DNA of 64,000 bases from Escherichia coli (lineage in GTDB: Bacteria > Pseudomonadota > Gammaproteobacteria > Enterobacterales > Enterobacteriaceae). The DNA is taken from NCBI RefSeq assembly GCF_041886205.1, contig NZ_CP169030.1; one strand, given 5' to 3'. The translations under genes and the position numbers were made by a program. This document shows, one piece after another, positions 2,753 to 63,651 of the stretch. The stretch's first letter is position 1; each line of letters begins with the position of its first letter. The notes under the pieces were generated by a model, which saw only the letters and a program-made list of their open reading frames with translations, searched no databases and was not told the origin of the DNA.

Positions 2753-4252
2753 TCAGTTAGTGTCTCCGGTACCACTTCCCTGACACGTTATATCTTCAGA
2801 TTTCCCCGGAAACAGGAGGTGACGAACAACAGCCTCATCCACACATAAATTAGAGCCAGCTAGCGCCAGCGTATGCCCGTCACCGTTAATAGTCAGTAAC
2901 GGAGCTGAAAATTTATCTGCCATTTTACGGGCATTTATCCAGGGAGTTGTCGGATCATATTTGTGTGCCACAAACAGTAAACCGGATGGTAAAACAGTAT
3001 TCTTCAGGCGTGTCTGTTGCAGATCGCGATGAATTGGCCATAATTCACAAAATTCAGGTAAATCGGACTGTTCCCTCTCAAAATTAACGGCCGGAAATGC
3101 GTCAGCAAGAGCTTTTTTTCGCGATTTTCGTTGTTCCTGTGATAATTGTTCATCACTCTGATCAACACATAATATTACACCCAGAGCATCACTGACTTTT
3201 TCCGATGCTATGGAAGAATTAAGTGCAGTTTCAATTTCATTGCTGACAATACCCTGAGAGAACTGACGTACGGCCGTTGCAAGTGTTGGCCATGATGAGC
3301 GCCATAACAGAAGCTCTGTCGTTAATGATATGAGATCATCTGAAGATATACTTTCCCCCCTGCTGTCTGTTAAAGGAGAATTATGTAATTTTAATAAAAG
3401 CTGATGGAACTGATGTATTGCCTGATTCCTGTCTGAAGAAAGTGGACAACTTTTTGTCCTGGCACACCATGCAGCAAAACGATCAAACGTTTCCTGATAA
3501 CTGTGGGCCTGCCTGAGTTTCCATGAAAAATTATCATTTAAATCATCAATATCAACGACACCGTCAAAAACTATAGATCTGATACTGGATGGAAAGCGTT
3601 CGGCATATAAGGCTGCAATCTGTGTACCGTATGAATATGCTACAGCTGTCAGTTGTTTATCTCCCAGAGCTTGTCTGATGCGTTCAATATCATATACAGC
3701 CTCATGAGATCCAATATGGCGAATGACTTCAGCTCCTGTATTATGGATACAGGCATTAATTTTCTGTAAAATTAGTTGCTTTTCACTTACATTCACCAAT
3801 CTTTCTTGATTGGATTGCTGGCAGTTTATGGCAGGAAAGGACTGACCGACACCTCGTGGATCAAAACCGATAATATCCCATGATTCCCGAAGATTTGTGA
3901 CCGGCCAGTCAAAATTGATATAAGGATTAATTCCGGGTAATCCAGGTCCGCCACTTATTATAATAACACTCCCTTTACGTTTACTTTTTGCCGGCAACTT
4001 TGTCATCGCCAGTCTGACAAGTGGTATATTTTCATCTGACACATCCTCACCTGTGTCGGTATATTTTAGCGGTACAGATAGATATCCGCATAACAACTCA
4101 GGTGAAGAGCTTTCTTTACCAAACCAGTCACTGTATGGGCTGGTCATACAGGATTGCCACTCGATCTGTCTGGCAGACACAGTTCCGCAAAGAAAAACAG
4201 AAAAGATAAAGAATACTAAAGTCCTTCTTAAAGGCTTCATTATCACACGCAT
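2753..4252 (-). CDS. secreted alpha/beta-hydrolase-fold peptidase (S33 prolyl/tripeptidyl aminopeptidase-like)
   Basis: 499 aa; N-terminal signal peptide (MKPLRRTLVFFIFSVFLCGTVSA); GGPG oxyanion-like motif and AYSYGT nucleophile-elbow-like motif; start codon uncertain (M1 or M5). Confidence 0.55.
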   Translation of the reverse strand: MRVIMKPLRRTLVFFIFSVFLCGTVSARQIEWQSCMTSPYSDWFGKESSSPELLCGYLSVPLKYTDTGEDVSDENIPLVRLAMTKLPAKSKRKGSVIIISGGPGLPGINPYINFDWPVTNLRESWDIIGFDPRGVGQSFPAINCQQSNQERLVNVSEKQLILQKINACIHNTGAEVIRHIGSHEAVYDIERIRQALGDKQLTAVAYSYGTQIAALYAERFPSSIRSIVFDGVVDIDDLNDNFSWKLRQAHSYQETFDRFAAWCARTKSCPLSSDRNQAIHQFHQLLLKLHNSPLTDSRGESISSDDLISLTTELLLWRSSWPTLATAVRQFSQGIVSNEIETALNSSIASEKVSDALGVILCVDQSDEQLSQEQRKSRKKALADAFPAVNFEREQSDLPEFCELWPIHRDLQQTRLKNTVLPSGLLFVAHKYDPTTPWINARKMADKFSAPLLTINGDGHTLALAGSNLCVDEAVVRHLLFPGKSEDITCQGSGTGDTN

Positions 4253-4344: not shown

Positions 4345-5292
4345 TTAAAACGTGTACTTCAGACCGGCCGTCGTAATGAAGTTGTAATTTTCAATTCCAG
4401 CCCCGTTATTATTATGCTCCGAAGTATTATCACTACGGTCGTAAAGAGATGTATCCCCTTTTTTATTTGTGAGACGACTCCATACACCCTCGATGTACAC
4501 TTTTGCCTCTGGGGTAATATAGTAACCGGCATTAACTGCAACAGAATAGTAATTCTGGTTTATTACTTTGCTTCGGAATGTAGTTTGTCTTACATAATGC
4601 TCATCATTATCAGATCCCCTGACCCACCCGCTGTATTTAAATGCACCACCAAACTCAAAATTATCGTAACGGTAGTTTCCTGTCAGACCGACATAAGGAA
4701 TTTTAAAATGTTGTTTATAACCAATCACTTTTATTTTATCAGGTAACGCTCCCGTTTCATTCCGGAAACCACCATTCTCACTATAAATATAAGTTCCTCC
4801 TGTAGCATTAAAACTGTAACGGCTTTCCTGATAACCTGCCATAATAGCAAGGCGATAATCAGATTCTTTTAAAAACCAGCCTTTAACGTTCAAATCAAAT
4901 TCGTTGGCATAATTAAGACGTGTATCAGGATGCCTGCTTTCATCTGTCCATGTTCCGGGAGTCCCGGAATCCATCCAGTCCTGATCAACCATATTCCCCC
5001 CCCGACTATTGAGAGTGGTCCAGCCAGCTGCACCAACAGATAACCATGGATTCAGCTCCCAGTTAACGGCGCCTTTAAGAATGGCGGCGTTACTGTATTT
5101 CCAGTCCAGTTGGCTGACTTTACGTCCACCTTCTTCAGGCTCATAAACCCGTTCTTTTGTTTTGCCACTCAGTGTACCTAAATTAATCTCTGTACTTATT
5201 TTCTCCGGGCCGAAGAAATCAGAAGCAGAAGCTTCCTGAGAACTGAATACCACAGGTGCTGCAAGCATAATTGCCAGAAGCTTAGTTTGCAT
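4345..5292 (-). CDS. ompT: omptin-family outer-membrane protease (plasmid OmpT-like)
   Basis: 315 aa; clearly homologous but not identical to E. coli OmpT by recall (shared DQDWMDS, TWTDESRHPDT and C-terminal GLKYTF). Confidence 0.85.
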   Translation of the reverse strand: MQTKLLAIMLAAPVVFSSQEASASDFFGPEKISTEINLGTLSGKTKERVYEPEEGGRKVSQLDWKYSNAAILKGAVNWELNPWLSVGAAGWTTLNSRGGNMVDQDWMDSGTPGTWTDESRHPDTRLNYANEFDLNVKGWFLKESDYRLAIMAGYQESRYSFNATGGTYIYSENGGFRNETGALPDKIKVIGYKQHFKIPYVGLTGNYRYDNFEFGGAFKYSGWVRGSDNDEHYVRQTTFRSKVINQNYYSVAVNAGYYITPEAKVYIEGVWSRLTNKKGDTSLYDRSDNTSEHNNNGAGIENYNFITTAGLKYTF

Positions 5293-5940
5293 AACAATGA
5301 CTCCCTTCTGTCACTTCTACATATGTATATGATTCTTTTGATGTACACCGGTAAGTCAATTATCAGTACTTAATTTGTTTAGCTTTTGTTTAACCTAATA
5401 GTTTGTTTTTGTGAGGTATATCAATATATCTAAATGATATGCGGTAATGGTGTGTATGTCATCTGAACATTCTTTATGGATAGTCTGTATAGACAGAACT
5501 TAATGTTAACATGGCTATTTGTTTATATAGATAGTCATTTTTATCTTAATACATCTGGCACATTATCTATTTGATATACTGATATGGTTCTGTAATGAGG
5601 TAAGAGTTTAGCTACTAAATGGAGGGCCTGACGCAACTACAGGATATGAGGTGAAAATATCGTCCTGATATGGCATAGTGAAATATTATAGTCGCTTTCT
5701 TAACTTATCCGGGCCTGGATAAAGTCCTCAGTTTTTTCTGATGGATTGTTGGATTTTTTAAGATTTTTTTATCTTTTTACTTCAAAAAAGATCTTGTAAT
5801 TATTGCAGTAAGTTGCATTGATAATGATTTTGCTATTGTATACAAAAAAACAGACCTCATAGCATAGCACTTTTAAATTTGTATATTACAATATACATAA
5901 AAGTCATGTCAATTATCACTTAAGGTTTGTTAAAAATCAT

Positions 5941-8900: not shown

Positions 8901-10128
8901 AGTGGCTGTTACGAATGTTGGTGGTTCAGGCGCTAATACGCTGAATAGTATTGAAGTTATTCATGTTGATGGTAATGCAGCTAACGCTGAATTTATTCAG
9001 GCCGGACGTATAGCGGCCGGCGCTTATGACTATACTCTTGGACGTGGGCCGGGAAGCAACTATGGAAACTGGTATCTGAGCAGTAGTAAAAATACTCCAG
9101 AACCAAGGCCTGATCCTGAACCTACTCCGGAAGGGCATGATAACAACCTGCGTCCGGAGGCTGGCACATACACCACAAACCTCGTTGCTGCGAACACCAT
9201 GTTTGTGACCCGCCTTCATGAACGTCTGGGGCAGACGCAATACGTCGATGCAATTACCGGAGAACCGAAAGCAACCAGTATGTGGATGCGCCATGAAGGA
9301 GGACATAACCGCTGGCGCGACGGTTCTGGTCAACTGAAAACTCAAAGTAATCGTTATGTGATTCAACTGGGTGGTGATATCGCACAATGGGATTGGGGTG
9401 GAACTAACCGCTGGCATCTGGGGGTTATGGCTGGTTACGGTAACAACCATAGCAGTACAGGTGCAGTACGCACCGGATACCATTCAAAAGGCAGCGTAAA
9501 TGGTTACAGTACCGGGCTGTATGCTACCTGGTATGCTGATGATGAGACTCATAACGGAGCTTATCTGGATACCTGGGCTCAGTACGGCTGGTTCGATAAC
9601 CATGTGAAAGGTGACGGACTGCCGGGTGAATCCTGGAAATCAAAAGGACTTACCGCCTCACTGGAAACAGGTTATGCCTGGAAAATCGGGGAATTCAGCA
9701 GCAACTATGGCAATCTGAACGAATGGTATGTTCAGCCTCAGGCCCAGCTTGTCTGGATGGGGGTTAAAGCTGATGAACTCTATGAAAGTAACGGTACTCT
9801 TATTGAAAGCACCGGAGACGGTAATGTCCATACCCGTCTGGGCGTGAAAACCTGGATTAAAAGGCTCAATAAAATGGATGATGGTAAATCACGTGAGTTC
9901 AGCCCATTTGTGGAGGTGAACTGGTTGCATAATACCCGTGATTTTGGGGTTCGTATGAACGGCGAACCGGTGTATCAGGATGGTACCCGTAATATCGGAG
10001 AGGTCAAAACTGGTGTGGAAGGTCAAATAAATCCCCATCTGAACCTGTGGGGGAATGTGAGAGTTCAAGTTGGTGATAAAGGGTATAACGACACCTCAGC
10101 CATGCTGGGTGTGAAGTATACATTCTGA
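5941..10128 (+). CDS. AIDA-type (type Va) autotransporter, 1395 aa
   Basis: Long Gly/Asn/Thr-rich beta-helix-like passenger; C-terminal region with autotransporter beta-barrel hallmarks ending in KYTF; AT-rich. Confidence 0.75.
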   Translation: MSHKFYYVISFLLSLASSPSIGDEMNCQRYFCFVNGIVEIRTAPEEYQNKPVLVGSQSDGLLIIDNHADIEDGIFSTLHIGNGYNGAVDVINGAALHMDNRSGSAPLIVGAFGNDIAGKLNISGRNSIVSYRDTPSSSGHNESIYVGFGLGATGWINIFNGGVFEVLNSTNIYVGSDTPGGGDGSIVIDGSNSKMTADFSEAYVGLYGNGDISLKNGGQLSASNLYIGGNGRAIVNISGTDSRLIANMITISGSSGAPGIYIADQGILNVDNYINITTANDTKGKLFINSDMPGTIESKGILFGVGKAELIFKHNSDNYAFSSPLISKNTGNGIVNAESGETHLTGDNTDYSGLLNILPTASIDISSQKNIGKSVIVNNGVLQITSQDDWTFNNNMTGNGYLNVHTGGHNFAFQNSTNTQEFTGTLALSDTLFDLSDDNTTALTSALVLAGVGSVITAGTGTQVINGFSFDGGAVNFGAVTQGAQQTESQIQVTDNLYINGNGAVRVSTPTDVNGIPQVINSSLSLLEQDDSNATIKLVDASSAVVKGNGGNLQLQDASGQVISSGKQRNIVQQGKNVAKGVYDYRLTSGPHNDGLYIGYALTQLDLLASGVDALVLDAAGTTGNAADMSARITGAGDLAFNSQKGETVSLSNQDNDYTGVTAIRGGNVLMNSNSVLGQTSEIRLATDTRLDMNGHSQTVGKLNGAAGSVLNINGGNLTLTDDGVSAGTLTGGGFLNISGGVLDITGGNHTFAVSTIIAKDATVRMNDVSGLGTGNISNAGTLSLTHASGLLSNNLSGSGTVSLINSDTQISGNNSNYSGLFVVDTSSQLTATGAQNLGIASVSNRGILQLNNTTDWQLINNVTGTGNVRKTGSGSLTVRSNAAWSGQTDIDDGSLILGQSDAPVMLASSLVNIAKNGKLTGFGGVVGNVTNSGSLDLRSAAPGNILTIGGNYTGNNGTLLINTVLDDSSSATDKLVIKGDASGKTRVAVTNVGGSGANTLNSIEVIHVDGNAANAEFIQAGRIAAGAYDYTLGRGPGSNYGNWYLSSSKNTPEPRPDPEPTPEGHDNNLRPEAGTYTTNLVAANTMFVTRLHERLGQTQYVDAITGEPKATSMWMRHEGGHNRWRDGSGQLKTQSNRYVIQLGGDIAQWDWGGTNRWHLGVMAGYGNNHSSTGAVRTGYHSKGSVNGYSTGLYATWYADDETHNGAYLDTWAQYGWFDNHVKGDGLPGESWKSKGLTASLETGYAWKIGEFSSNYGNLNEWYVQPQAQLVWMGVKADELYESNGTLIESTGDGNVHTRLGVKTWIKRLNKMDDGKSREFSPFVEVNWLHNTRDFGVRMNGEPVYQDGTRNIGEVKTGVEGQINPHLNLWGNVRVQVGDKGYNDTSAMLGVKYTF

Positions 10129-24469: not shown

Positions 24470-24698
24470 ATGAGACTCTTTATGAATACTATAAAAATAA
24501 AGCTAAACCTAATTGATTATGATTCAATTGTAAATATTGAACTTCCCTGTCTTCTATCTGAAATAGAGATAGAGTTATTATCTCAATTACTGAAGGGGTA
24601 TTCTGTAAATGAGATTTCCAAGCGAAGAAACAGAAGTATAAAAACAGTCTCGTGCCAAAAAATGAAATTATATAAAAAACTTAACGTAAAAAGCGATC
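24470..24698 (+). pseudogene. 5' part of a pdeL(yahA)-like gene: LuxR-type HTH domain, interrupted by IS629-like element
   Basis: LSEIEIELLSQLLKGYSVNEISKRRNRSIKTVSCQKMKLYKKLNVKSDL is a clear LuxR HTH; reading frame continues in frame into the EAL ORF once the IS and its 3-bp duplication are removed. Confidence 0.65.
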
Positions 24699-24740
24699 TG
24701 AACCGCCCCGGGTTTCCTGGAGAGTGTTTTATCTGTGAAC

Positions 24741-25631
24741 TCAGGCTGCCAGATCATCGTTTCCGATGGAAGCATAATAAGCTTTTTCTGCTTCTGCCGG
24801 AGGAGTATGGCCCAGCCTTTCCAGCAATCGTCGATTGTTATACCAGTCCACCCACGTGAGTGTGGCCAGTTCCACTTCTGCACGGTTTTTCCAGCTCTTA
24901 CGGTGTATTACCTCCGCTTTGTAAAGACCATTGATGCTCTCCGCCATCGCGTTGTCATACGAGTCGCCTGTACTTCCTGTTGATGCCAGTAATCCGGCTT
25001 CCTTAAGCCGCTGTGTGTAGGCCAGCGATACATACTGAGAACCTTTATCACTGTGATGGACCGTGCCGGACGGTCGACGGGCCCATAACGCCTGCTCCAG
25101 TGCATCCAGCACGAATGTCGTTTCCATGGACGATGAGACCCGCCACCCCACGATGTATCCGGCAAACACATCAATGATGAACGCCACATAGACGAAGCCC
25201 CGCCATGTGCTGACGTAAGTAAAATCAGCCACCCACAGCTGGTCAGGTCGTTCTGCCACGAACTGACGGTTTACGCGGTCGCCTGCGGCAACGGCTTTCC
25301 GGCTGATGGTCGTACGGACCTTTTTACCCCGGAGAACACCGGCAAGTCCCATAACCGCCATGAGACGTGCCACAGTGCATCTGGCCACTCTGATACCTTC
25401 CCGTAACAACTGACGCCAGACTTTACGCACACCGTATACCTTGTGATTTTCATCGTATACGCGCTGTATCTCTTTCTTCAGCCAGTCATCGCGCTGCGCA
25501 CGGGCACTGCGTTTATCCGGATGATGTCGCTGTTGCTGACAGTGGTAATACGTTGACGGGGCAATATGCAGTTCGCTGCATAGCGGTCCGACCCCGTACT
25601 GCTCACGCAGCTTATCCAGCAGTGGCATCAT
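24741..25631 (-). CDS. IS3-family transposase OrfB (IS629-like)
   Basis: 296 aa DDE transposase. Confidence 0.8.
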
Positions 25632-25954
25632 TTTTTCCAGAGGCGGTCGAACTCCGCCTTCGCAAAATAAGCGGAAGCCTGGCGAAGGATATCGTTACTG
25701 CGGCGCAGTTCACGATTTTCACGTTCCAGCTCTTTCAGACGCTGACGTTCAGCGGTGGTGAGCCCTCCATCACCGCCCCCGGTATCCCGCTCATGCTGGC
25801 GAACCCAGACACGCAGAGTCTCCGGCGTACAGCCAATCTTTGGAGCAATGGAACAAATTGTCGCCCATTGTGAGTCATATTCGCTCTGACTTTCCAGAAC
25901 CATACGGACTGCCCGTTGACGGACTTCGGGGGAAAAACGAGTATTTTTAGTCAT
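25628..25954 (-). CDS. IS3-family transposase OrfA (IS629-like)
   Basis: 108 aa HTH protein [19 protein letters not shown]... Confidence 0.8.
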
Positions 25955-26008
25955 CCTGTTTACCTCTTTCTCAGGAAGTTTAGTCTCCAGGATTCCCGGG
26001 GCGGTTCA

Positions 26009-26856
26009 ATCTGACTTTATGGCGAGATGTTTTTTTAAGATTTAAAGTCTACCTACAACCTAAAAATATCATCTGTGATAATTTTAATAGCTCTGTTTTA
26101 CCAGTTGTTTCATCTAAAGGGGAGAGTATGGCGCACTACAACATATATTACCAACCGATCTATAACGCAAAAAATGGAAATATTGCTGGATGTGATGTTA
26201 CTATTGCGTTAAAAAATTCAGATGGTAGTGCTTTTGCACTAGATTCTGACAGAATTAATTATAACCCCAATGATAACAAAGTATCTTATTTGTTTGGACA
26301 TATCAACAAACTATTCTCACCGATTAAAAATAATCTTCCACATGGTTTTTTTATTACGATAAACATTAATCCTGAAGATATTCTTACCTGTGATATCGAA
26401 AGGGAGTGTTTACATTTTATTAAAGTTTTCGGAACGGAACGGATAAGACTTGTCTTGCAGTTTTCAACTAAAGAAGAACTTTACATAATAAGAAGATACC
26501 AGTCTTCTTTAAGACGTATCAGAAATAATAATGTTTATTTATCGCTTAATGATTTCGGTATGGGATATGCTGAGCTTTCACACTTGCAAAACATACCTTT
26601 CTCCTATGTAAACCTACATAAAACAATGTTCCATGATATAGAAAGCAATAGTTTAACAGATATAATAGCAACTACAATTATTGATTTATCAAAACAACTG
26701 CATATAGATGTTATTGCTGATGGTATAGAAACGAAGAAACAGGCAGGTTATATGATTGAAAGAGGAGTTAAATATTTAAAAGGCATTGCATTATCATCAC
26801 CGCTACCTGCAGATGCATTTGTACGAAAATTGTTAGCTTCATTAAAACAAGTCTAA
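26009..26856 (+). pseudogene. 3' part of the pdeL-like gene: EAL domain (c-di-GMP phosphodiesterase); an internal ATG at 26128 could still give a stand-alone EAL protein
   Basis: YQPIY motif near start of EAL domain; no stop codons between IS end and 26128 in the same frame as the upstream HTH. Confidence 0.65.
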
Positions 26857-26897: not shown

Positions 26898-27313
26898 AAT
26901 ATCACCTGGTAAATATTATACCATTTTCATTTGATATGAATTTTCTTAAAATTGATATCAGCGAAGATTATAATTTTCGAGTGCGCAAAACCTGTCTGAT
27001 TTGTTAAACAACAAAAAGATTAAGGGTTTATTGGTATGAAATAAGAAAAAAACCTCCTTTGAATTCAAAGGAGGAGAAAAATAAGGCTTACTTCAAGTCA
27101 CCCCCACTATCAATGGAAGTTTCTTATTTATACATGTTCTTAATGTTAAATATGATGTGTAAATTCCTAAATTTAAATCTATTGCCCATTTTGGGGTAAA
27201 TTTCTTTGCTCGAGTAGGCAGCCTGACGGCTGCGGCTTGTCATGGTCTGCCATTACCGTTATAAAAATAAACAATGTCATTGCCTTTCAGGTGGTTAACT
27301 TCCCCGCTATGTC

Positions 27314-27646
27314 GTGAAGCTTCACAACGATGACTTCTTTGACGAAGAAGACGTAGAAGTTCTGCGCTTTGATAGTTTTGACGATGCAGTTGAGTGCTGC
27401 GCAGACCTGGGTATTCCGTTCTTTCTGGATGCAGGAAACAAAAAGCTGGTCTTCTGGTTTGTTCGTGTCGATGACGAAGGGTATCCGGAAATAGCCCGCT
27501 GTACGGAACGAGAGTTTGCGACCATTCTTGCCGGTATCAGCGCCGGCGGTATGTACTGCCAGGAATGCGGCACTGTTCACTGGCCGGATGGAGTTACCCC
27601 GCCTTCTGATGCTTCCCCGTTTTGCAGACATCTTGCAGCAGGGTAA
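27314..27646 (+). CDS. hypothetical protein (110 aa) upstream of IS91-family transposase fragments
   Basis: ORF only; acidic N-terminus; function unknown. Confidence 0.3.
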   Translation: MKLHNDDFFDEEDVEVLRFDSFDDAVECCADLGIPFFLDAGNKKLVFWFVRVDDEGYPEIARCTEREFATILAGISAGGMYCQECGTVHWPDGVTPPSDASPFCRHLAAG

Positions 27647-28680
27647 CCGCTGGCTTAACTGGCTGGAGAAGCAGCCGGAAGGGGCAGTGCGTCTGGTGGT
27701 GATTGAGTCAGTGACAAAAATCACGGCGTGCGGGATCACGCTGATGGGGTACACGCAGTGGTGCTGTTCATCACCGGACTGTTGCCACACCAAAAAGGGC
27801 TGCTTCCGGTGTAAAAGCCGTTCCTGCCCACACTGCGGAGTGAAGGCTGGCGCACAGTGGATACAGTATCTGCTGAGTCTGGTCCCCGACTGCCCGTGGC
27901 AGCATATTGTGTTCACACTTCCGTGCCAGTACTGGTCCCTGGTGTTCCACAACCGGTGGTTACTGGCAGAGATGAGCCGTATCGCAGCCGACGTGATCGC
28001 CAGACAGATGTGGAGCCGGGGATATTCACGGTAATCCACACCTGGGGACGTGACCAGCAGTGGTATCCGCATATCCATTTATCGACAACAGCCGGAGGCG
28101 TGACGTCGGCTCTGACCTGGAAAAACCTTCATTTTTACGCCCGTAAGGTGATGAGCATGTGGCGTTACCGGATAACGCGGTTGCTGTCACGGAAATACCC
28201 GGACCTGGTGGTACCGGATGAGCTGGCAGCAGAAGGAAGCAGCAGACGGGAATGGAATCACTTCCTGGACAGTCATTACCGCCGTGGCTGGAATGTCAAC
28301 GTCTCCAGGGGGATGGATAACGCCACACATGTGGCGGTGTACTTTGGCTCTTACCTGAAAAAACCGCCGGTTCTGATGAGCCGTCTGGAGCATTATGCCG
28401 GTCGGGATGAAATTGGTCTGCGTTACAACAGTCACCGGACAAAACGGGAAGAATACTTGGTGATGAGTGGCGATGAATTCATGGAAAGGTTCTCCTGGCA
28501 TGTGGCGGATAAGGGGTTCCGGATGGTGAGTACTACGGGTTCCTGAGTCCGGTGAAGCGCCGGTTGCTGGAAGAGGTGGTGTACGTCATAACGGAGACGG
28601 TGAGAAAAACGGTGAAACAAATCAGGTGGAGAGGGATGTATCAACGATTACTGAAGGTTGACCCGCTGAAGTGTGTGCTG
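27516..28680 (+). pseudogene. IS91-family (HUH rolling-circle) transposase, frameshifted and truncated by IS21
   Basis: Cys-rich zinc-binding segment (CKSRSCPHCG) and HUH-like segment (HTWGRDQQWYPHIHL) split over at least three frames. Confidence 0.5.
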
Positions 28681-28740
28681 TGTCAACGCCACGATTTTTA
28701 ACCGTTATTTGCCATTTTCATGCCCGCTAAAATACTTTCG

Positions 28741-30710
<1,970 letters not shown>

Positions 30711-30821
30711 GTTGATGTCCTTTCTGGTGTGGGAACCTTAAGGAAACAACATGTTGGGTGGAGCGGACAATCCAAATGGTGAATTACCGTCTTATATCAC
30801 TGGCGCTAACAGATCTGTAAT

Positions 30822-33004
30822 ATGAAGATACTGAGGCAGCTGTGGAACCAGAAAGGGCTTGATGCGGCAGTTGAAGATGTACCTGAGGATCGATACGGTT
30901 TCGGTAATATCGCAGAAAATATATCCCGTTCCATCCTTACTCTTCCTCTGGAGGCTTCAAATGTTGTCGGAATAGAAGGTGCATGGGGATCGGGTAAAAC
31001 AAGCCTCCTTAATCTGATCCTGAGAAACCTTGCCCTGAAAAAAGATGCTCACACGCATGTGCTGCATATTTCTCCCTGGCTGAGTGGTGGCAGTCCGGTT
31101 GAAGCGCTCTTTCTTCCGGTTGCCACGGTTATCCAGCAGGAAATGGAAATACGCTATCCCCCGAAGGGCTTCAAAAAGCTCTGGCGTAAATATCTGTTGT
31201 CACCGGAAGCTCAAAAAGTGATTGAGTATGCTCAGGATACTTCATCGCGCGTCCTTCCACTGGTTCAATATATCGGACAGTTTTCCAGCATTATTAACTG
31301 GATAGCAGGCGGAATAAAGGTATTTTCAGACAGCCGTCTGGCTGTTGATCAGAAAACCACGACAAAGCTTCGGGCTGAAATTGCAGGACAACTGGTGAGT
31401 CTGGATCTGAAGTTCATTGTTGTCATGGATGATCTGGACCGACTGGAGCCATCCCAGGTGGCGGAAGTGTTCAGGCTTGTGCGTGCAGTAGCCGATCTGC
31501 CCCGCTTTACCCATATTCTCTGTTATGACAGGCAGATTATCACTCATGCCGTTGAACATGCGCTGAATATCGAAGATGGCAGCCGTTATCTCCAGAAAAT
31601 CATTCAGCTTAGTTTTAAATTACCCCGACCTGAAGCCTTTGATTTACGTAATGAATTTCGCCAGCGGGCTGAGGCTCTATATCAGCAAATTAATAATCAA
31701 CCGCCAGACTCTGGAATGGTAAGGGATCTCATCGCGGTGACTGATACCTATGGTGCCGCACTTTCGACGCCACGGGAAATCCATCAGGCCATTAATTCCC
31801 TGATTTGTGCCTGCTTCAGCTTATACGGGTGACAAACCCGGCTCTGTATGACTGGACAGAGCATTACCTGACAGAACGGTCCGTGATTGAAACCGGTCAG
31901 GGTATGCTTTCTGACGGAGAGAAAGCAGACTTCCGGGAGGGGCTTATCAGATGTATGAAGACGTTCAGGGCATCAAATGCAGACTCGTTTCTGACACTTG
32001 CAGACTGGATCCCAGGTATCAGTGGACATAATGATGAATATCTGAATCTTTTTGAGCCCGTCAGTGAGGATTTTCGTCATATCCAGACGACCGGTAAACG
32101 ACTCAGCAGCCTGACGCACTGGCGATATTATTTTGCCTTCTCCTCACCACAGAATGTTCTGCCACCTGAATTCTTCAGACAGCTTTTTGAACAGGCTGGC
32201 GTATCGGAAAAACAGCAGCAGCTTTCTGAATTGCTGCTCTCAAAAATCAACAGTGTGGGCAGTCTGTCCGGAACCTGGTTTGAACATATACTGAGCAGAC
32301 TGACTCCAGGCCTGATAAGAGAACGTAATTTCGAAGAGTGCGCAGGACTGGTTCATTTTTTCTTCGATCACACCGATGAGGTGAGCACTCGCTTCAGTAT
32401 CCGTAACCCATGGTTTTCCCTGCGTGAAATGGCCATTAATGAGGTTGTACGGCATCTGCTGAAGCATATGCAGGATATTGATGAGACCAGAACGATCACG
32501 CTTATGGAAAAACTGATCGTTACGGGTGCTTCGCCGTTCTGGATAGCCGATTTTATGCGGGATCTTATCTGGGAACATGGACTTGCTCAGAATGCAGTAC
32601 CTTCGCCTTCAGACGCTCTTTTCAGTCGCGATATTACGGAACGGTTGCGTGACAGGTTTGCGGAACGTATGAATCAACCAGAACTTCAGCAACAGCTTCT
32701 CCTGCGCAAGTCTCTTCTCGGGTATCTCTACGCCTGGAGAGACATGAGTTCAGGTGAAACCGTGAAGCAATGGGTCAGAGAAGTTACTACCACTGATGAA
32801 GGCCTTGTTAACCTGTTGATACGATTACAGACCAGTGTCTTCAGCTCCCACCGAGGGGCATATCGCCGGATTGCGCGTGACCAGGTCAGTCCGTTCTTTG
32901 ATGACTGGCCAGCAGTCGAAGAGAAGTTGAAGGTTATGCTGTCCGGCAACGAGCTGACTCCGGAGCAGGAAGCGCTCAAAACAGCGCTGGAAAATGACGA
33001 CTGA
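30822..33004 (+). pseudogene. KAP-family P-loop NTPase, split by a frameshift near 31805-31832 (about 730 aa if repaired)
   Basis: Walker A GAWGSGKTS, Walker B FIVVMDDLDR and PREIHQAINSL motif in ORF 30822-31832; continuation in the next frame at 31805-33004; IS21 ends 10 bp upstream of the ATG. Confidence 0.6.
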
Positions 33005-33013
33005 CCAAAAATT

Positions 33014-33036
33014 AAGGCCGCTTAGCGGCCTTTTTC
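33014..33036. terminator. bidirectional terminator hairpin between convergent genes (AAGGCCGC-TTA-GCGGCCTT then T-run)
   Basis: Read directly. Confidence 0.5.
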
Positions 33037-33053
33037 TTACTAAATGAAGGAGA

Positions 33054-33953
33054 TCAGGCGCTTAATGCTTTATCCTTGTCAAAAGGAACACCGGCATACG
33101 CAAGCTCACTCAGCAGTTTGCGTTTCCATCCACCATGCTCATCAAGCTCGGTATAGAGAACCCCGGCAAGATCTGAAGGGATTTCGATATCTCCCTTCCT
33201 GAGTACAAGTACTTTCCCGCGTCCAAGCTTCCCGGCGAAATATCCGAGCTCATACAGGACATTCTGGCGTGCGCGGAGACGTGTGCTTTCAGATGCCAGA
33301 GCACTGCCGCTATCGTCGGGCGTCATCAGCACGATGGCAAAACTGACATCCCCTGACTCTGCTTCAAATTTCTCGATAATCGTCCTGGAGCCGTCAGGAC
33401 GTTCTGAAAGAATGATTTCCTCAAGACCTATCCGGGATATAAAACGGGCAACAGACTGAAGGGCATCATTATCATGGCCATGAACAATAAAAATTTTTCG
33501 GGAAACCGGCCGAAACACTGCAGGCTCAGGATCGTGTTGGTTTTCCACATACAACTGGTAATCGCGCACGAACGGGGCAACTAATGACGACGTGAATTTT
33601 CGAATGGATTCAATAATGTTTCGATCATAGAAAAATGTATGACAGAAATTAAAGGAAAAATTGTTATCGTCTGCCATTTTCTCGATCAGCAGCAACTTCA
33701 GGCCCAAAATATCAGCGGGCTCATCAGGCCACTGTAGAACAGCGGAACCAGCCATGCTGGATTCAGTATCTTCACTCCTGGCCAGAAAGGTATCAAGTTC
33801 AACATTGCGGGTCAGATGTGCATTAACTGACTGCAGATTCTCTGAGTTCAAGAGCCGGGCCAATTGCTTAAGAGGTTGCTGATAGTTCTGAACGTCAGCG
33901 CGCTGAAGGTCGAATACGCAATTTTTAAGTGACTGAAAGATATCAATTGCCAT
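33054..33953 (-). CDS. protein with C-terminal TIR-like (COG4271-type) domain and unknown N-terminal domain
   Basis: 299 aa; C-terminal KIFIVHGHD ... AIVLMTPDD ... RARQNVLYELGYFAGKLGRGKVLVL matches recalled hallmarks of the TIR-like domain found in CBASS/Pycsar-type effectors. Confidence 0.5.
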   Translation of the reverse strand: MAIDIFQSLKNCVFDLQRADVQNYQQPLKQLARLLNSENLQSVNAHLTRNVELDTFLARSEDTESSMAGSAVLQWPDEPADILGLKLLLIEKMADDNNFSFNFCHTFFYDRNIIESIRKFTSSLVAPFVRDYQLYVENQHDPEPAVFRPVSRKIFIVHGHDNDALQSVARFISRIGLEEIILSERPDGSRTIIEKFEAESGDVSFAIVLMTPDDSGSALASESTRLRARQNVLYELGYFAGKLGRGKVLVLRKGDIEIPSDLAGVLYTELDEHGGWKRKLLSELAYAGVPFDKDKALSA

Positions 33954-34233
33954 CCTGCCCGCTCTCCTGTCTTTGTTGTTCTGCTCTGTCCAGAATCTGT
34001 TGGCGCAGATTTTCTTTCATGTGTTCGATTAATGGGCTGACCATCGGATTAGTGGCATAACCAGAAGCGCGTTCGTACACCATGGAATAGGCTTCCTGAA
34101 TCGCGTTCTCAATGCTGACAGGATCGTTAGCATCGAAGTGGACATCATAACTTCCGTTTAATGCCTCTGTTGCTCTCTCAACCTCTTTTAGCTGTTTCTG
34201 CATTTTGTCTAAACCTGTGATTTTGACGCTCAT
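33943..34233 (-). CDS. small hypothetical protein (96 aa), translationally coupled to the TIR-like gene
   Basis: Stop overlaps downstream start by 11 nt; helical, charged; no recognisable domain. Confidence 0.4.
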   Translation of the reverse strand: MSVKITGLDKMQKQLKEVERATEALNGSYDVHFDANDPVSIENAIQEAYSMVYERASGYATNPMVSPLIEHMKENLRQQILDRAEQQRQESGQDGN

Positions 34234-34380
34234 AACAACCTCCGGACTAAGTGAGATGTATCAACCTTTATAGATAGCACGTTGGAGATGTGGGGTAAGG
34301 GATATCACTCAAATTCCATGTAATTTCATTAAGATCAGACTTAACCTTTTTTCGGATCTCAGATAAAAAAGAAAGAAATA

Positions 34381-34511
34381 GAGATATGCTAAACATATGC
34401 CTGGCATCTACATATGCTACCGCTATACATATGCCACACATCTGCCTATACTAAACATATGCACACACCCGGTGCTTTGAATATTCCGGATATGTTTCAC
34501 ATATCCATATG
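34381..34511 (+). promoter_or_regulatory. array of five or more direct ACATATGC-type repeats upstream of vapB (putative operator)
   Basis: ACATATGC at 34392, 34409, 34426, 34454 plus variants AGATATGC (34381) and CCATATGC (34504); read directly. Confidence 0.4.
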
Positions 34512-34528
34512 CTCGGGAGAGAAAAAAC

Positions 34529-34759
34529 ATGAGAACCGTATCGATATTTAAAAATGGCAACAACCGCGCCATCCGTCTGCCTCGTGATCTGGATTTTGAG
34601 GGGGTGAGCGAGCTCGAGATCGTCCGGGAAGGGGACAGCATCATCCTGCGCCCCGTCCGGCCAACCTGGGGATCATTCCTAGAGTACGAAAAAGCCGATC
34701 CAGATTTTATGGCGGAGCGCGAGGATGTTGTCAGCGACGAAGGGCGATTTAACCTGTGA
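34529..34759 (+). CDS. vapB: VapB-type antitoxin (AbrB/SpoVT fold)
   Basis: 76 aa; overlaps vapC start by 4 nt; resembles VagC/VapB of enterobacterial plasmids by recall. Confidence 0.8.
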   Translation: MRTVSIFKNGNNRAIRLPRDLDFEGVSELEIVREGDSIILRPVRPTWGSFLEYEKADPDFMAEREDVVSDEGRFNL

Positions 34760-35172
34760 ACAAGACTTATATGCTTGATACCTGTATCTGCTCGTTCATC
34801 ATGCGTGAACAGCCAGAAGCCGTCCTGAAGCGTCTGGAGCAGGCGGTGCTACGCGGCCACCGTATAGTGGTCTCGGCCATCACCTACTCTGAAATGCGCT
34901 TCGGGGCTACCGGCCCAAAGGCCTCACCACGTCACGTCCAACTGGTCGATGAATTCTGCGCCCGCCTCGATGCCATCCTGCCCTGGGATCGCGCCGCAGT
35001 AGACGCCACCACGAAGATTAAAGTGGCACTGCGGCTGGCCGGGACGCCGATCGGCCCGAACGACACGGCGATTGCCGGGCACGCCATCGCCGCCGGGGCG
35101 ATACTGGTAACGAATAATACAAGAGAATTTGAGCGAGTGCCTGACCTGGTGCTGGAAGACTGGGTGAAGTAA
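34756..35172 (+). CDS. vapC: VapC PIN-domain toxin
   Basis: 138 aa; N-terminal MLDTCI with acidic Asp typical of PIN domains. Confidence 0.8.
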   Translation: MNKTYMLDTCICSFIMREQPEAVLKRLEQAVLRGHRIVVSAITYSEMRFGATGPKASPRHVQLVDEFCARLDAILPWDRAAVDATTKIKVALRLAGTPIGPNDTAIAGHAIAAGAILVTNNTREFERVPDLVLEDWVK

Positions 35173-35210
35173 GACACTCTTTTCAAAGTCAGGAGATAAG
35201 GGCACCAAGA

Positions 35211-35235
35211 AACAGCCCGTATACGGGCTGTTTTA
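35211..35235. terminator. terminator hairpin after vapC (CAGCCCGTATACGGGCTG then TTTT)
   Basis: Read directly. Confidence 0.55.
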
Positions 35236-35333
35236 ACAGATATCTACAGTAAGCGGTCCTAAACTGTAGGGTATCTTCGAAGATCAGACTATCAGGGAGC
35301 TAAAGCCTATCTTCCGGCGGCAAAAACAGTGGC

Positions 35334-37472
35334 TCAAGCGATACGGGCAACCGAGCTCTGGTTTGCTGCCGGTGGCAGGGCGATGAGCTTGTCACATTCC
35401 ATAATCACGTACTCCGGGATGAGATCGAATCTGGACGGATCTAGTTGACAGATGAACTCATTTTCAATGTGGTACGTTTCGTTAACGAATTTTCGTATTA
35501 CCGGATGGTCCTGATCCAGTTCCAGTAAACGGAATACCTGCAGTTTTTCATAGCCGTTACGACAGCGACGGTACAGGTTTTTTATTTCATCTGGGCTGCT
35601 GACGAGAGCCTGAAGTCGCGGGTAATCAAAACTGTCCACATACTCCCGGATATCCCGCAAGGCCTGCTGAATTTTCTCAGGAGCCATTTTGGGATAGCCC
35701 GAGCCCGCAGCGGCAGGCTCGCGATAATCCAGCGGGACGACGCGTCGATGGAATAGATTGGATAGAAGCTGATAAGCATCACCACGTTCGTCAACGATTT
35801 CAAAGTAGCGACGAAGATAGATGAGCTTAATGATCTCCTCACAGTCTGCTGACGCGGTGATGGATTTGCAGATCTGCATGAATGTCATGATATCGCCGTC
35901 GTTAACAGGTAATTCTTCTATGACTCCAGCAGACAGGCGCAGGCAGGAGGCGGTCACCTGATTACTGAACAACCTTCTGACTGACTTCAGCGTGTCAATC
36001 ACAGGCTCCACGTCATGCGTCAGCATAAGTACAGTCCGGTTCTTCAGGCATTCACCACTTGCACGTCTGAACAGCATTTCAAGAATGGCAAACTTCTTGT
36101 TTTTATCAAAAGAAGATATGGGATCATCAAGGATAATCAGTCCCGGGTTTTTTGACAGGCATTCATACATGAATAACACAATCGCAAAGGCGTTCCGTTC
36201 TCCATAGCTGAGATGCTGGCTACCGCCGCTGACGTACCCGTCAAAATCTATGTGTCGTAGCCTGAGTTTTCTCTGCTCTCCCTCGCCGGCTATATCCACC
36301 CTGTATTTATAGCCTGCATAAGTGAGGAAATTATTGATGTTTGTTTTGTGCTGTGCGATCAGCCGGATCATGCTGTCCCGGTGCCGGTTAATTTTTCCCT
36401 GCAGCGGTCCGGCAAGGTTTATCAGGTCCATAAGGGCCGCGTTCAGTCTGTCGGTGATCCCCTGCATGAGTTCGGATTGCAGATCAGGGAAGAACTGCAG
36501 GTCAATCAACCTGGCAGTGAGCACCTCCCGAACGTTCTGCTGTTCCTGCAGGCTGAAAACATTCAGGCCTCTCAGCGCAGTGAGTTTCTCTGTCAGCGTA
36601 TCGGTCTGGCGTTTCAACGCCACTAGGTACTCGATATGTTCGGCTTCCGGACCGTTCTGAAGCATAGTAATGGCCAGAAGGCGTTCTCTGGCGCTCTCCG
36701 TCAGGTAATTACCGAGGTTTTCCACCAGTCTGATGATAGCGGTCAGGTTTTTAATGGTGGATTTATCGTATTCCTCTCTGACTTGGCGAATTTGTGCTTC
36801 CTTTCCCGTGATATCACCGGTACAGAACGGACAGCAGCCATCCGAAAGGGGCGAAAACTCGAGTCCCTTTGTCTGCCAGTCAATCCATTCCACGCGGCGT
36901 TCACTGCGGATGTAGGGTTGATAGTTCTCAAGACCAGCCGGAATGTGGTGTATTTTATTTCCGCCTGACAGACCTCTCATGCCGGTTGAAGAACGTGAAA
37001 TCCCGGAACTGGTTGATCTGAAAGCATTACTGAGTTCCTGTAGATGGTCTATCAGAGAGTTCAGCTCAGTGTGATCCGTGAAAACAGCCCGGATCTTTTG
37101 CGTCATTTCTTCTATTTCACGCTCTCTTTCCGCATGGGCTTGATTGCGGATAAGAATATTAAAGCTATCACTGATGAGCTCGTCCGGTTGGAACGTAAAC
37201 TGACTGACGTACTCCTCGTTGAAGCACATCACGTCCCCAATCCCGTCAGCACCGATGACAATGGGCCCGGTGCTATCGGGGTTTTCTCCGCGCAGCCGGA
37301 AGGGTATCAGTGCCTGTAGTCCCTGAATGTCGTCCCGCGCCGCACAGCTTATGGCCCGTGACAGCGTACTTTTTCCAGTACCATTTGGCGCAAACTTAAT
37401 GTTCAGTTTATCGGCAGTGAGGGTGATATGTGCTCGTACGATGTTATTGCAGTGGCGTATTTCAATGTCCAT
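35334..37472 (-). CDS. RloC/Rad50-like ABC ATPase with CxxC motif in the inter-lobe insert and an uncharacterised C-terminal domain
   Basis: 712 aa; Walker A APNGTGKST near N-terminus; CCPFCTG about residue 213; signature-like LSYGERN, Walker B LIILDDPISSFD and H-loop LTHD about residues 415-480; roughly 230 aa beyond the ATPase. Confidence 0.55.
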   Translation of the reverse strand: MDIEIRHCNNIVRAHITLTADKLNIKFAPNGTGKSTLSRAISCAARDDIQGLQALIPFRLRGENPDSTGPIVIGADGIGDVMCFNEEYVSQFTFQPDELISDSFNILIRNQAHAEREREIEEMTQKIRAVFTDHTELNSLIDHLQELSNAFRSTSSGISRSSTGMRGLSGGNKIHHIPAGLENYQPYIRSERRVEWIDWQTKGLEFSPLSDGCCPFCTGDITGKEAQIRQVREEYDKSTIKNLTAIIRLVENLGNYLTESARERLLAITMLQNGPEAEHIEYLVALKRQTDTLTEKLTALRGLNVFSLQEQQNVREVLTARLIDLQFFPDLQSELMQGITDRLNAALMDLINLAGPLQGKINRHRDSMIRLIAQHKTNINNFLTYAGYKYRVDIAGEGEQRKLRLRHIDFDGYVSGGSQHLSYGERNAFAIVLFMYECLSKNPGLIILDDPISSFDKNKKFAILEMLFRRASGECLKNRTVLMLTHDVEPVIDTLKSVRRLFSNQVTASCLRLSAGVIEELPVNDGDIMTFMQICKSITASADCEEIIKLIYLRRYFEIVDERGDAYQLLSNLFHRRVVPLDYREPAAAGSGYPKMAPEKIQQALRDIREYVDSFDYPRLQALVSSPDEIKNLYRRCRNGYEKLQVFRLLELDQDHPVIRKFVNETYHIENEFICQLDPSRFDLIPEYVIMECDKLIALPPAANQSSVARIA

Positions 37473-37825
37473 TTATCTGTCCTTTGCCAGTTATTCCGGG
37501 GGGATTCATATCCTTCCGCAAAATGTGCCCGCATGCTGTGATGCAGATACATAATACATTTCGTTTATACCATTGCTTACACCTCTCCGAGGTGTTCATA
37601 TCAGAAACAAAGATTAGGTCGATCCGACTTAGCCGGAAACCGGATCTGCGCGGCAGAAAAGACGCAAATGATATGATAATTAAGAAATATACATAAAATC
37701 ATATCAGATATGATTTTAATCATTAAAAATGAAACAATATCTGATATTATCAGAAATCAAAAGCACACAAATCATACATGATATGATTTTTACCTGTCAG
37801 AACATTATCAGATGGAGCGTGCAGG

Positions 37826-38083
37826 ATGGATCAGGAAATGACGTTTTCACTCAGCTATGAACAACTGACCCGGTTTGCGGAACGACGCATCCGGGAATGC
37901 AATCTGGACAGCCAGGGCGCGATTTATCTCTGCGAGTCAGCCAAAGCCGGAGCCGTGCTGATCTTCTGGCATGAACTGGCCATAAATGGCTATGCCTCAA
38001 TGAATGCCATAAAGAGACAGGAGCTCATTGACGCCGACTTTCAGCGCCTCAGAAAGCTCATCTGGCCGGAGGATGACAGGTAA
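37826..38083 (+). CDS. hypothetical protein (85 aa)
   Basis: ORF; stop overlaps next start. Confidence 0.35.
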   Translation: MDQEMTFSLSYEQLTRFAERRIRECNLDSQGAIYLCESAKAGAVLIFWHELAINGYASMNAIKRQELIDADFQRLRKLIWPEDDR

Positions 38084-38673
38084 TGACCCAGAGCCGCCGA
38101 CCGTCGCCACTGCAGCGGAGAGTGCTGATTGTGCTGGCTGCCCTTGATGAAAAACGGCCAGGACCCGTGCTGACGCGGGACATAGAACGGGTGCTGGAGC
38201 GAAGCGGGGAAGCCCCGGTCTACGGGCCAAACCTGCGCGCCTCCTGCCGTCGTCTGGAGGATGCCGGCTGGCTGCGTACCCTGCGCGCTCCGAACCTGCA
38301 GCTGGCAGTGGAGCTGACGGACGCCGGCCGGGCCGTGGCACAGCCTCTGCTGCTGGCAGAACAGGACCGCCTCCGGGCAGAACAGCGTGCGGCAGAAGTC
38401 GTCGTACTGCCGCTGGTCCCGGCAGCAGGTCTGCACGCAGACGGCACTTCTGCCACTGATCTGGCGGTGGAGCTGAACGGCATAACGTATCAGGCCTGCC
38501 GTGGGGATTTTGTGGTGCGTCTCGACGGCAGCACCTGTCTGCAGTTATGGAATAAAGAAGGCAGAGTGGTACGCCGGGAGGGCGATCCGCTGGAAGTGGC
38601 GCAGTGGCTGCAGGCCTGTCATGATGCCGGAATAGAAGTTCGTGTACAGGTTAATGAAAGCGTCACTCCGTAA
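38083..38673 (+). CDS. hypothetical protein with N-terminal winged-helix-like segment (196 aa)
   Basis: ORF in GC-rich plasmid backbone; domain guess only. Confidence 0.35.
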   Translation: MTQSRRPSPLQRRVLIVLAALDEKRPGPVLTRDIERVLERSGEAPVYGPNLRASCRRLEDAGWLRTLRAPNLQLAVELTDAGRAVAQPLLLAEQDRLRAEQRAAEVVVLPLVPAAGLHADGTSATDLAVELNGITYQACRGDFVVRLDGSTCLQLWNKEGRVVRREGDPLEVAQWLQACHDAGIEVRVQVNESVTP

Positions 38674-38690
38674 AAACATGCCAGCACGGT

Positions 38691-39038
38691 TTACACGTCA
38701 TCCCATGATGGCAGCCGGTTAACTTTCCTGCGCCACCAGTGGAAAGAGGCCATGAGCAGTCCGAACAAAAAACCACCCGTGATACTTATAATAATGGCCT
38801 CACCTGCCACCATTCCTGACGGCCTCCAGTAGATAAACCACATTGCACATCCCCAGGAAATGCCCCATAAGCCCCCCGTCAGCACCGTGACCTGCCAGAA
38901 CGGCATAAAGGGTAATGGCGGAAGCCGGATACCCAGCCGCCAGAGAATACGCAGAAGAGGAGGGGCATAATTGCTCCGCCACATCTTTTTGCTGTCCATC
39001 AGGGCAATGGCCCGGGCTTTTTTCTGCTCAAAGGTCAC
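38691..39038 (-). CDS. hypothetical membrane protein (115 aa)
   Basis: Two hydrophobic helices; Trp/Arg-rich. Confidence 0.35.
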   Translation of the reverse strand: MTFEQKKARAIALMDSKKMWRSNYAPPLLRILWRLGIRLPPLPFMPFWQVTVLTGGLWGISWGCAMWFIYWRPSGMVAGEAIIISITGGFLFGLLMASFHWWRRKVNRLPSWDDV

Positions 39039-58567: not shown

Positions 58568-59863
58568 TCAGAGCTTATTCTCTGCTGTCTGATAGCCACG
58601 GCTGAGACGAACAAACAGCATTGCCGTTGCGGCGAGTCCGCATAGCGCCGCGCACATGAGCCACCACCCCGGAGAACTCTTATCGCCGGTCAACTGGACC
58701 AATGCGGTGGAGATAGCAGGCGTCAGGCCGCCGAAAATCGCAGTCGCAAGACTAAAGGCCAGCGAAAAACCCACGGTTCGGACATAAACCGGCATCACTT
58801 CGGTCAGGGCCGCCACCATCGCACCGTTATACATGCCAAAAAAGAACGAGAACCAGAGCAGCACCAACGTCATGCGGGTGAAGTCAGGGGCAGCGGTAAG
58901 CCAGTTCATCACCGGCCAGGTGGTGACGAGGGCGAGCAAGGTGATGCCCATCAGCACCGGGCGTCGCCCGATCCGATCAGAGATAGCGCCGCCAATCGGC
59001 AGCCAGATGAAGTTAGAAATCCCTACCAGCATGGTGACAACCAGGCTGTCACGTGCGCTCAGGTTCAACACCGTTCTCCCGTAAGTGGGGGTATAGACAG
59101 TAATAAAATAAAAGGTCGTGGTCGTCATCGCTACCAGCAGGGTACCCGCGGTGATGATGCGCCAGTTTTTAGCAATGGTGGTAAAAATTTCCCGGGTGTC
59201 CGGACGGTGTTTACGTTGTAAAAAGGCTTCAGTTTCCTGTAGCGAACGTCGAAGAACAAAAATCAGCGGAATAATCATGCAGCCAATGAAGAACGGGATT
59301 CGCCAACCCCATTCGGAGATTTCATCGTGTCCCAGCGTGACATTCAGACCGTAGCCGATCAGCGCGGCGACGACAATCGCCACCTGCTGGCTGGCCGATT
59401 GCCAACTGGTGTAAAAGCCTTTATTGCCTGGTGTAGCGATCTCAGAAAGATAAACAGAGACGCCGCCCAGTTCGACGCCAGCAGAAAATCCCTGTAGCAG
59501 ACGCCCCACCAGGACCAGCACGGGAGCCAGCAGGCCGATAGTCTGATAACCCGGCACGAGGGCGATGAGCAGCGTGCCGCAGCCCATAATCGCCAGGGTG
59601 ACCATCAGCCCTTTCCGTCGGCCGATTCTGTCGATATATGCGCCCAACACCACGGCCCCGATAGGGCGCATTAAAAATCCGGAGCCAAAAACGGCAAAAG
59701 TAAGCATTAATGCGGCAAACTCACTTTCGGCAGGAAAAAACGTCTTTGCGATATAAGTGGCGTAAAAACCAAACAGGAAAAAATCGAACTGTTCGAGAAA
59801 ATTACCGCTGGTCACACGCAGTATTGCGCCGAACGTGCCAGCGCGCGATGGTTGTTGAGTCAT
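58568..59863 (-). CDS. tcuC: MFS transporter, tricarballylate/citrate-type (TcuC-like)
   Basis: 431 aa, 12-TM MFS; located downstream of tcuA/tcuB. Confidence 0.65.
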
Positions 59864-59917
59864 TGAAGTTGCTCCACTGTCTTATCAGAATTATGTATAG
59901 AGGTAAGAGTTTGCGGG

Positions 59918-62447: not shown

Positions 62448-62543
62448 CGTCTACTCCATTACCATTTAACTATTTGTTAAATTTGTAATTGAAATGTATA
62501 CGTATGATTGTATGGGCGCTATAACGAATAGCTAAAGATGGGT

Positions 62544-63470: not shown

Positions 63471-63651
63471 TGCGATTCTCCGGAGAAGGCTGGGATATTT
63501 ACATTAAATCAACATGCTGTCAGAAGAAAGCACTAAGTAGAGAATGGCGCGCATAACAAAACAACCGACAGGTTGACTTTTCAGAATAGGGGCAGTTTGG
63601 TGATCGTCACCAGTATATGCAGCGTCAGCTGCATGGAAGGCGGCACGCTGT

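Follow-up and report, generated by a model that had tools for sequence, protein, structure and literature searches.

An ordinary, decayed and immobile copy of an IS91-family insertion sequence, already known and annotated in RefSeq, occupies positions 27210-28680 (plus strand) of the window, the 64,000-nucleotide stretch of Escherichia coli DNA analysed here, which belongs to an F-like plasmid. With high confidence, we read this region as the dead remnant of an IS91-type rolling-circle element, an ISEc37-like isoform, with an inferred history of four steps. Its identity, anatomy and lesions were observed directly, as were the empty insertion site, the absence of oriIS (where transposition starts) and the lack of a target duplication around the adjoining IS21. 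The remnant did not deliver the defence-type genes that lie beyond this IS21.

The family assignment, first made in a sequence-only reading of the window, is borne out, well beyond chance, by protein domains and by nucleotide identity. Pfam matches, both exceeding the curated gathering scores, were obtained for Zn_Tnp_IS91 (E 1.2e-16, ORF 27516-28034, plus strand) and Y2_Tnp (E 2e-31, ORF 27857-28546, plus strand), so that both the N-terminal zinc-binding domain and the Y2 HUH nuclease domain typical of the family are present, and the DNA is about 91% identical to ISEc37-type copies over 1.47 kb (compared with the copy in NZ_CP051000.1). In a megablast search of complete E. coli genomes, a 1541-nt query (27200-28740) was 100% identical to plasmids of strains JNU, C41 and ZYB62 and matched hundreds more plasmids at about 91%, with some of these copies labelled ‘IS91-like element ISEc37 family transposase’. 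The RefSeq annotation of the identical plasmids gives, in order, a ‘hypothetical protein’, an ‘IS91 family transposase, frameshifted, incomplete, missing C-terminus’ and the istB and istA genes of IS21. The 770 records at 95-99% that looked like closer intact relatives were rejected as such, as a cleaner 524-nt query returned only the three identical plasmids and a single closer copy, itself another fragment, in pAL.H8 (96%). The parts of the remnant and its right-hand neighbours are as follows:

27210-28680, plus strand: IS91-family (ISEc37-like) remnant, approximately positions 1-1540 of an 1829-bp element, with the left end and the indels set by a six-way alignment
27210-27265, plus strand: terIS end, conserved in all copies (6/6), the left flanks of which diverge, its features matching IS91 (PMC13181058)
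27297-27646, plus strand: damaged orf121, from alignment gaps and a tblastn match of Orf121 residues 19-120 at 27299-27604
27609-27997, plus strand: tnpA fragment 1, TnpA residues 1-130 with the Cys-rich zinc-binding domain, from Pfam (Zn_Tnp_IS91, 1.2e-16), tblastn and translation
27998-28529, plus strand: tnpA fragment 2, residues 135-312 approximately, in a second frame, with the HUH and YFGSY motifs, from Pfam (Y2_Tnp, 2e-31), alignment and motif positions
28531-28680, plus strand: tnpA fragment 3, residues 313-363 in a third frame, ending at the IS21, from alignment and tblastn
28681-30811, minus strand: complete IS21 of 2131 bp, with istA at 29538-30710 and istB at 28741-29541, named as in RefSeq annotation of identical DNA
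30812-33004, plus strand: right IS21 flank, with 10 nt left from the end of pifC and then pifA (ATG at 30822), from alignment to pO83_CORR and ZYB62 and the annotation of F

The six-way alignment comprised the window copy and five full-length relatives from different contexts. The relatives are 1829 bp long, start with T-CGAGTAGGCAGCCTGACGGCTGC and end with TTCCTATCGAT (GGGGTTTTAATTCCTATCGAT), followed by GAAC (in three copies), CAAG or GAAG. Their orf121 has 121 codons and their tnpA 395, the TGA of the former and the ATG of the latter overlapping (TGATG), and their intact TnpA carries HPHIH at residue 157 and YFGSY at residue 249. IS91 itself has the order terIS-orf121-tnpA-oriIS, and its target beside oriIS is CTTG or GTTC, with T always in the second position (Fauconnier et al. 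2026, PMC13181058). The remnant shares with the prototype IS91 (X17114), a rolling-circle insertion sequence with orf121, the terIS with its CTCG and palindrome, the TATAAA −10 box of the orf121 promoter and the C105-X2-C108 motif of Orf121, and the lineage of its relatives matches IS91 in the 121-codon orf121, the TGATG overlap with tnpA and the CTTG/GTTC target. ISEc37, first described on pECTm80, is reported to be 95% identical to IS91, and it is through this identity that the remnant is tied to X17114 (PMC3332091). ISEc37 and ISEc37-like copies on E. coli and Shigella plasmids have the same terIS sequence, orf121-tnpA order and TnpA motifs as the window copy, which differs from ISEc37 in four internal deletions, the replacement H157Y and a missing 289-bp end that includes oriIS; the nucleotide identity of about 91% indicates a diverged isoform and, unlike IS91, the window copy is non-functional. 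An intact ISEc37-like copy lies inside istB of an IS21, itself interrupting traI, in NZ_CP011417.1 (3561-7358). Plasmid pCFSAN029787_01 was considered as an instance of a shared IS91-IS21 association and set aside as unrelated, the nesting being the reverse (IS91 within istB).

The left end of the remnant is intact in the six-way alignment. In IS91, terIS consists of a 5'-CTCG cleavage tetranucleotide next to a subterminal palindrome, and the TATAAA −10 box of the orf121 promoter lies inside the terIS region (PMC13181058). The same arrangement is found here upstream of the genes: a T is followed by CGAG at 27211-27214, the complement of the 5'-CTCG cleavage tetranucleotide, and beside it lies the palindrome GCAGCC-TGAC-GGCTGC at 27218-27233, which forms a 6-bp hairpin in the centroid DNA fold. 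TATAAA at 27260-27265 corresponds to the −10 box of the orf121 promoter, an assignment made by position alone and by analogy to IS91 (PMC13181058); a simple sigma-70 scan did not call this promoter. The element thus starts at 27210/27211 and not at 27314, as had been proposed together with an end at 28680 that proved exact. Of the two ends that the earlier reading had asked to be identified, the ter end is therefore located, whereas the ori end is absent from this copy. The terIS boundary is ambiguous by 1-2 nt. The same T precedes the CGAG terminus in 6/6 copies, the left flanks of which are otherwise unrelated, and also precedes CAAG in the empty site of F, so that either the boundary is ambiguous by one base or the target preference reaches a fifth base. 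A second, inverted terIS end (89% over 66 nt) was observed in pF8704-2_3 (NZ_CP051000.1), 1.9 kb upstream of a complete ISEc37 (1073-1138 and 3001-3088). Between this terIS pair lie a small hypothetical gene and one for a YopT-type cysteine protease, and the second end may have been left behind by a further IS91 copy or by one-ended transposition.

Downstream of terIS, a 54-nt deletion at 27296/27297 has removed the orf121 ATG and the first 18 codons, and a second deletion, of 1 nt near 27602, puts the TGATG stop/start overlap out of frame, so that orf121 reads through it to 27646; the relatives are intact at these positions. The leftover 110-amino-acid ORF (27314-27646) is the ‘hypothetical protein’ of the RefSeq annotation. 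It had been taken for part of the transposase, and tblastn and the alignment identify it instead as damaged orf121, homologous to Orf121 residues 19-120 with 91% identity. It covers most of Orf121, including the C-X2-C at residues 105/108 of the intact 121-amino-acid protein, which is the motif reported for IS91 Orf121 (C105-X2-C108, PMC13181058). Similar orf121 indel variants occur in a minority of IS91 isoforms (Fauconnier et al., PMC13181058). The truncated Orf121 might still be produced, given the strong −10 box of the orf121 promoter in the apparently intact terIS, and might act in trans on active IS91 copies in the same cell, damping transposition or sharpening termination at terIS, or the orphan terIS might stop a rolling-circle event coming from a foreign upstream oriIS, although we regard any such residual role as very doubtful.

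The transposase gene is broken in turn. Three overlapping plus-strand ORFs in different frames are seen in the ORF listing and on reading positions 27000-29000, and a tblastn search with an intact 395-amino-acid TnpA places residues 1-130 at 27609-27998 (frame 3), 135-315 at 27998-28540 (frame 2) and 313-363 at 28531-28683 (frame 1), with the Cys-rich domain in the first and the HUH domain in the middle fragment; zinc-finger and HUH segments had indeed been described as spread over three frames. The gene is distributed in this way because of two frameshifting deletions seen in the six-way alignment, one of 13 nt at 27997/27998, by which TnpA residues 131-134 are lost, and one of 1 nt near 28529. 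Both catalytic motifs of the family, HUH and YxxxY, lie in the middle fragment, the HUH region as YPHIH at 28064-28078 (H-I-H at 28070-28078) and the two-tyrosine motif as YFGSY at 28340-28354. TnpA residue 157, the first H of HPHIH just before the HUH, is Y in the window (28064-28066) and H in 5/5 full-length relatives.

Homology to the full-length copies ends at 28680-28682, where the IS21 starts (TGTCAACGCC). The last 289 bp, encoding TnpA residues 364-395 and containing the whole 187-bp oriIS region, are absent, and no 3' part of IS91, other ISEc37-like DNA, IS91-type transposase coding sequence or second IS21 was found by blastn and tblastn elsewhere in the 64-kb window. With its oriIS end missing, the copy is a truncated member of the family, not a non-member. 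The suspected inactivity is accordingly confirmed by four internal deletions, a tnpA frame broken twice and the loss of the C-terminal 32 residues together with oriIS. Having neither a transposase nor oriIS, the remnant would, by the published mechanism, be immobile, that is, unable to move, to be moved in trans or to mobilise its neighbours. The right end of IS91 was reportedly found to be essential by Mendiola et al. in 1994.

To the left of the remnant, positions 1-27211 of the window are collinear with plasmid F, from 37.6 down to 10.4 kb, over a stretch containing RepFIB, ompP, autotransporters, IS remnants, a bactofilin gene and an EAL gene. Plasmid F and three natural F-like plasmids have an empty site, TTTGCT/CAAGGG, exactly at the terIS boundary (the slash marking this boundary): they read GGGGTAAATTTCTTTGCT/CAAGGGTAATTG where the window reads TTTGCT/CGAGTAGG. 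The CAAG after the boundary reads 5'-CTTG on the complementary strand, which is the canonical target of IS91. Since the homology to F ends exactly at terIS, in a canonical target that is empty elsewhere, the element arrived alone, by a normal two-ended insertion. The empty site is compatible with insertion free of target duplication, the right end of the window copy being gone. Within the collinear stretch, a 1310-bp IS3-family (IS629/IS1203-like) element at 24699-26008, with ends TGAACCGCCCCGGG and a 3-bp duplication (ATC), splits the EAL-domain gene of F into an N-terminal part (ORF starting at 24470) and the EAL domain (26128-26856). F lacks this insertion, and ZYB62 and pC4101 carry an EAL gene annotated as intact.

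In F and the F-like plasmids, the empty site is followed by 29 nt, to which are joined only the first 8 codons of tcuR, which encodes a LysR regulator, and the region upstream of that gene (9249-9451 and 5112-5462 in the two sequences retrieved, L011 and L012). In the window, by contrast, tcuR is complete and lies 36 kb away (within 62544-63619). The tcuR arrangement of F looks like a deletion derivative, and the plasmid of the window thus does not derive in a simple way from an arrangement of the F-like kind. The 29-mer is absent throughout the window, and its 9-nt resemblance to the IS91 terIS region (TTGTCATGG) was judged to be due to chance. The tcuR-tcuABC (tricarballylate) cluster of the window is complete (58568-63470).

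To the right, the remnant abuts an element that has the length (2131 bp), gene pair and terminal repeats (TGTCAACGCCA and TGTTAGCGCCA) of IS21 and is labelled as such in RefSeq; its ORFs encode a 390-amino-acid IstA and a 266-amino-acid IstB. It differs from a simple IS21 insertion in that no target-site duplication is present, the flanks being GCTG on the left and GATC on the right, and we therefore consider it a rearrangement joint. The remnant had been described as truncated by IS21, and the copy does abut and end at this element, but the missing 3' part does not continue beyond it. Instead, alignment to the intact pifC-pifA of pO83_CORR shows that pifC is gone except for its last 10 nt and that the pifA ATG is intact. 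Both IS21 junctions are confined to the same three sibling plasmids among 72,556 PLSDB records, and in these records no intermediate plasmid was found with a single IS21 junction, with an intact IS91 at this position or with a duplication-flanked IS21 in IS91 or pifC. As for a reciprocal product, no second IS21, pifC or IS91 3' part was found in the window, in a 17.5-kb region of ZYB62 or in the first 100 kb of pC4101, and the latter two sequences likewise yielded no other IS91-type transposase.

PifA is the founding bacterial KAP NTPase, and the pif locus of F is known for the exclusion of phage T7. The product of pifA in the window is likewise a KAP-family NTPase (Pfam KAP_NTPase, 1.3e-43), and the locus is 98-99% identical to that of IncF plasmids, differing from the pif locus of F in the loss of pifC but for 10 nt and in a 43-nt frameshifting deletion in pifA. 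The latter, at 31795, splits pifA (30822-33004) into ORFs of 336 and 399 amino acids; pO83_CORR and the sibling ZYB62 have an intact pifA. As a result of the deletion of pifC, which encodes the repressor of pifA, the IS21 now lies 10 nt upstream of the pifA ATG.

These features can be accommodated in a model of four steps, in which the succession of the events is inferred, as is the mechanism of recombination. First, a full 1.83-kb terIS-orf121-tnpA-oriIS element would have inserted by ordinary transposition into a 5'-CTTG target (TTTGCT/CAAGGG on the plus strand of the window) in an F-like backbone, just downstream of the EAL-domain gene. Next, during decay, small deletions would have hit the start of orf121, the translational coupling of orf121 and tnpA and, twice, the tnpA frame. 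An IS21 would then have come to sit in tnpA at about codon 363 and, lastly, an IS21-associated rearrangement would have swapped everything to its right for a block with pif, TIR and VapBC genes, at the cost of oriIS, the 3' end of tnpA and almost the whole of pifC. Most likely, two IS21 copies would have recombined in this last step, or replicons would have fused through IS21, with another IncF plasmid involved.

The main competitor for the last step is that the joint arose by one intramolecular, IS21-mediated adjacent deletion in a single ancestral plasmid, without recombination between copies or fusion of two IncF replicons. A single insertion sequence between two unrelated cut flanks, with no duplication, is the classic footprint of such a deletion. 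Were the gene order that of F, however, such a deletion, extending between pifC and the IS91 site, would take out RepFIC, tra and RepFIA. In the sibling plasmid pC4101, RepFIC, tra, sopAB and ccdAB are still present on the other side of the pif block, and the usual place of pif beside ccdAB is occupied by IS debris. The gene content of pC4101 and this debris indicate that the pif block was relocated or imported by recombination, with the IS21 at the joint, and they speak against one deletion in cis that started from a gene order like that of F. Moreover, the genes that follow the TIR gene and its hypothetical neighbour (vapBC and AAA ATPases) are in the order of pO83_CORR-type plasmids and not in that of F. 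A single adjacent deletion is therefore unlikely, and recombination between IS21 copies or a replicon fusion of two IncF plasmids is favoured.

It had also been suggested that an IS91-family element, before its decay, delivered the neighbouring KAP NTPase, TIR, VapBC and AAA ATPase genes by one-ended transposition. The remnant is only 2.1 kb from pifA, and in IS91 and IS1294 termination at terIS fails in 1-14% of events, with adjacent DNA being co-mobilised (PMC13181058). One-ended transposition, however, starts at oriIS and overruns terIS, so that the cargo comes to lie beyond terIS, upstream of orf121 (PMC13181058). In the window, pifA and the TIR and VapBC genes are on the oriIS side, joined to the remnant through an IS21 that lacks a target duplication and cuts pifC, and the terIS side holds the EAL gene in F backbone, with a canonical empty target site that speaks for normal termination at terIS. 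The pifC-pifA-TIR-hypothetical gene block is part of F and recurs in many IncF plasmids without an adjacent IS91; extended by VapBC and the AAA ATPases, the block is common in IncF plasmids, again with no IS91 nearby, and the combination IS91-IS21-pifA is found only in the three sibling plasmids, not as a recurring unit of an insertion sequence and its cargo. With the wrong geometry, an IS21 joint in between, a block native to IncF plasmids and a normal empty site, delivery by this element is highly improbable.

As regards the further content of this side, positions 33000-38800 encode a TIR-domain protein, a small hypothetical protein, VapBC and AAA-family ATPases, in the order of pO83_CORR-type IncF plasmids and not in that of F. 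Positions 39001-64000 are 100% identical, in two pieces, to plasmid NZ_AP024116.1, which is not among the records holding either IS21 junction (coverage at least 80%). This resistance and accessory region contains a TnAs1-type Tn3-family transposase gene (55050-58016), tet(M), Tn402-like tni genes, a PAS-MCP gene and tcuRABC.

Two further readings can be given practically no weight. A simple insertion of IS21 into a contiguous IS91 copy, with the remainder just beyond it, would fit the exact stop of IS91 homology at the IS21 terminal repeat, but the far flank is pifC/pifA and not tnpA, the flanking GCTG and GATC form no duplication, and ISEc37 3' sequence is absent from the window and from the sibling DNA retrieved (the 17.5-kb ZYB62 region and the first 100 kb of pC4101). 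Similarly, that the frameshifts are sequencing artefacts or programmed sites in a functional transposase gene might be argued from two of the four indels, each a single base within a short run (CCC to CC and GG to G), but three independent and complete plasmid assemblies carry the identical sequence, the other lesions are of 13 and 54 nt, five relatives encode an uninterrupted 395-amino-acid TnpA and thus use no programmed frameshift in this lineage, and the C-terminal 32 TnpA residues and oriIS are physically absent.

The main value of these observations lies in annotation: the region should read as a truncated IS91/ISEc37-like pseudo-element, and its first ORF as an orf121 remnant instead of a ‘hypothetical protein’. 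The region is also a worked example of insertion sequence copies marking recombination joints in mosaic IncF plasmids, and a caution that an IS91-family relic beside defence genes need not imply one-ended capture. As IS91 transposition has a direction, from oriIS to terIS, a claim of capture can be tested from sequence alone, and here the claim fails.
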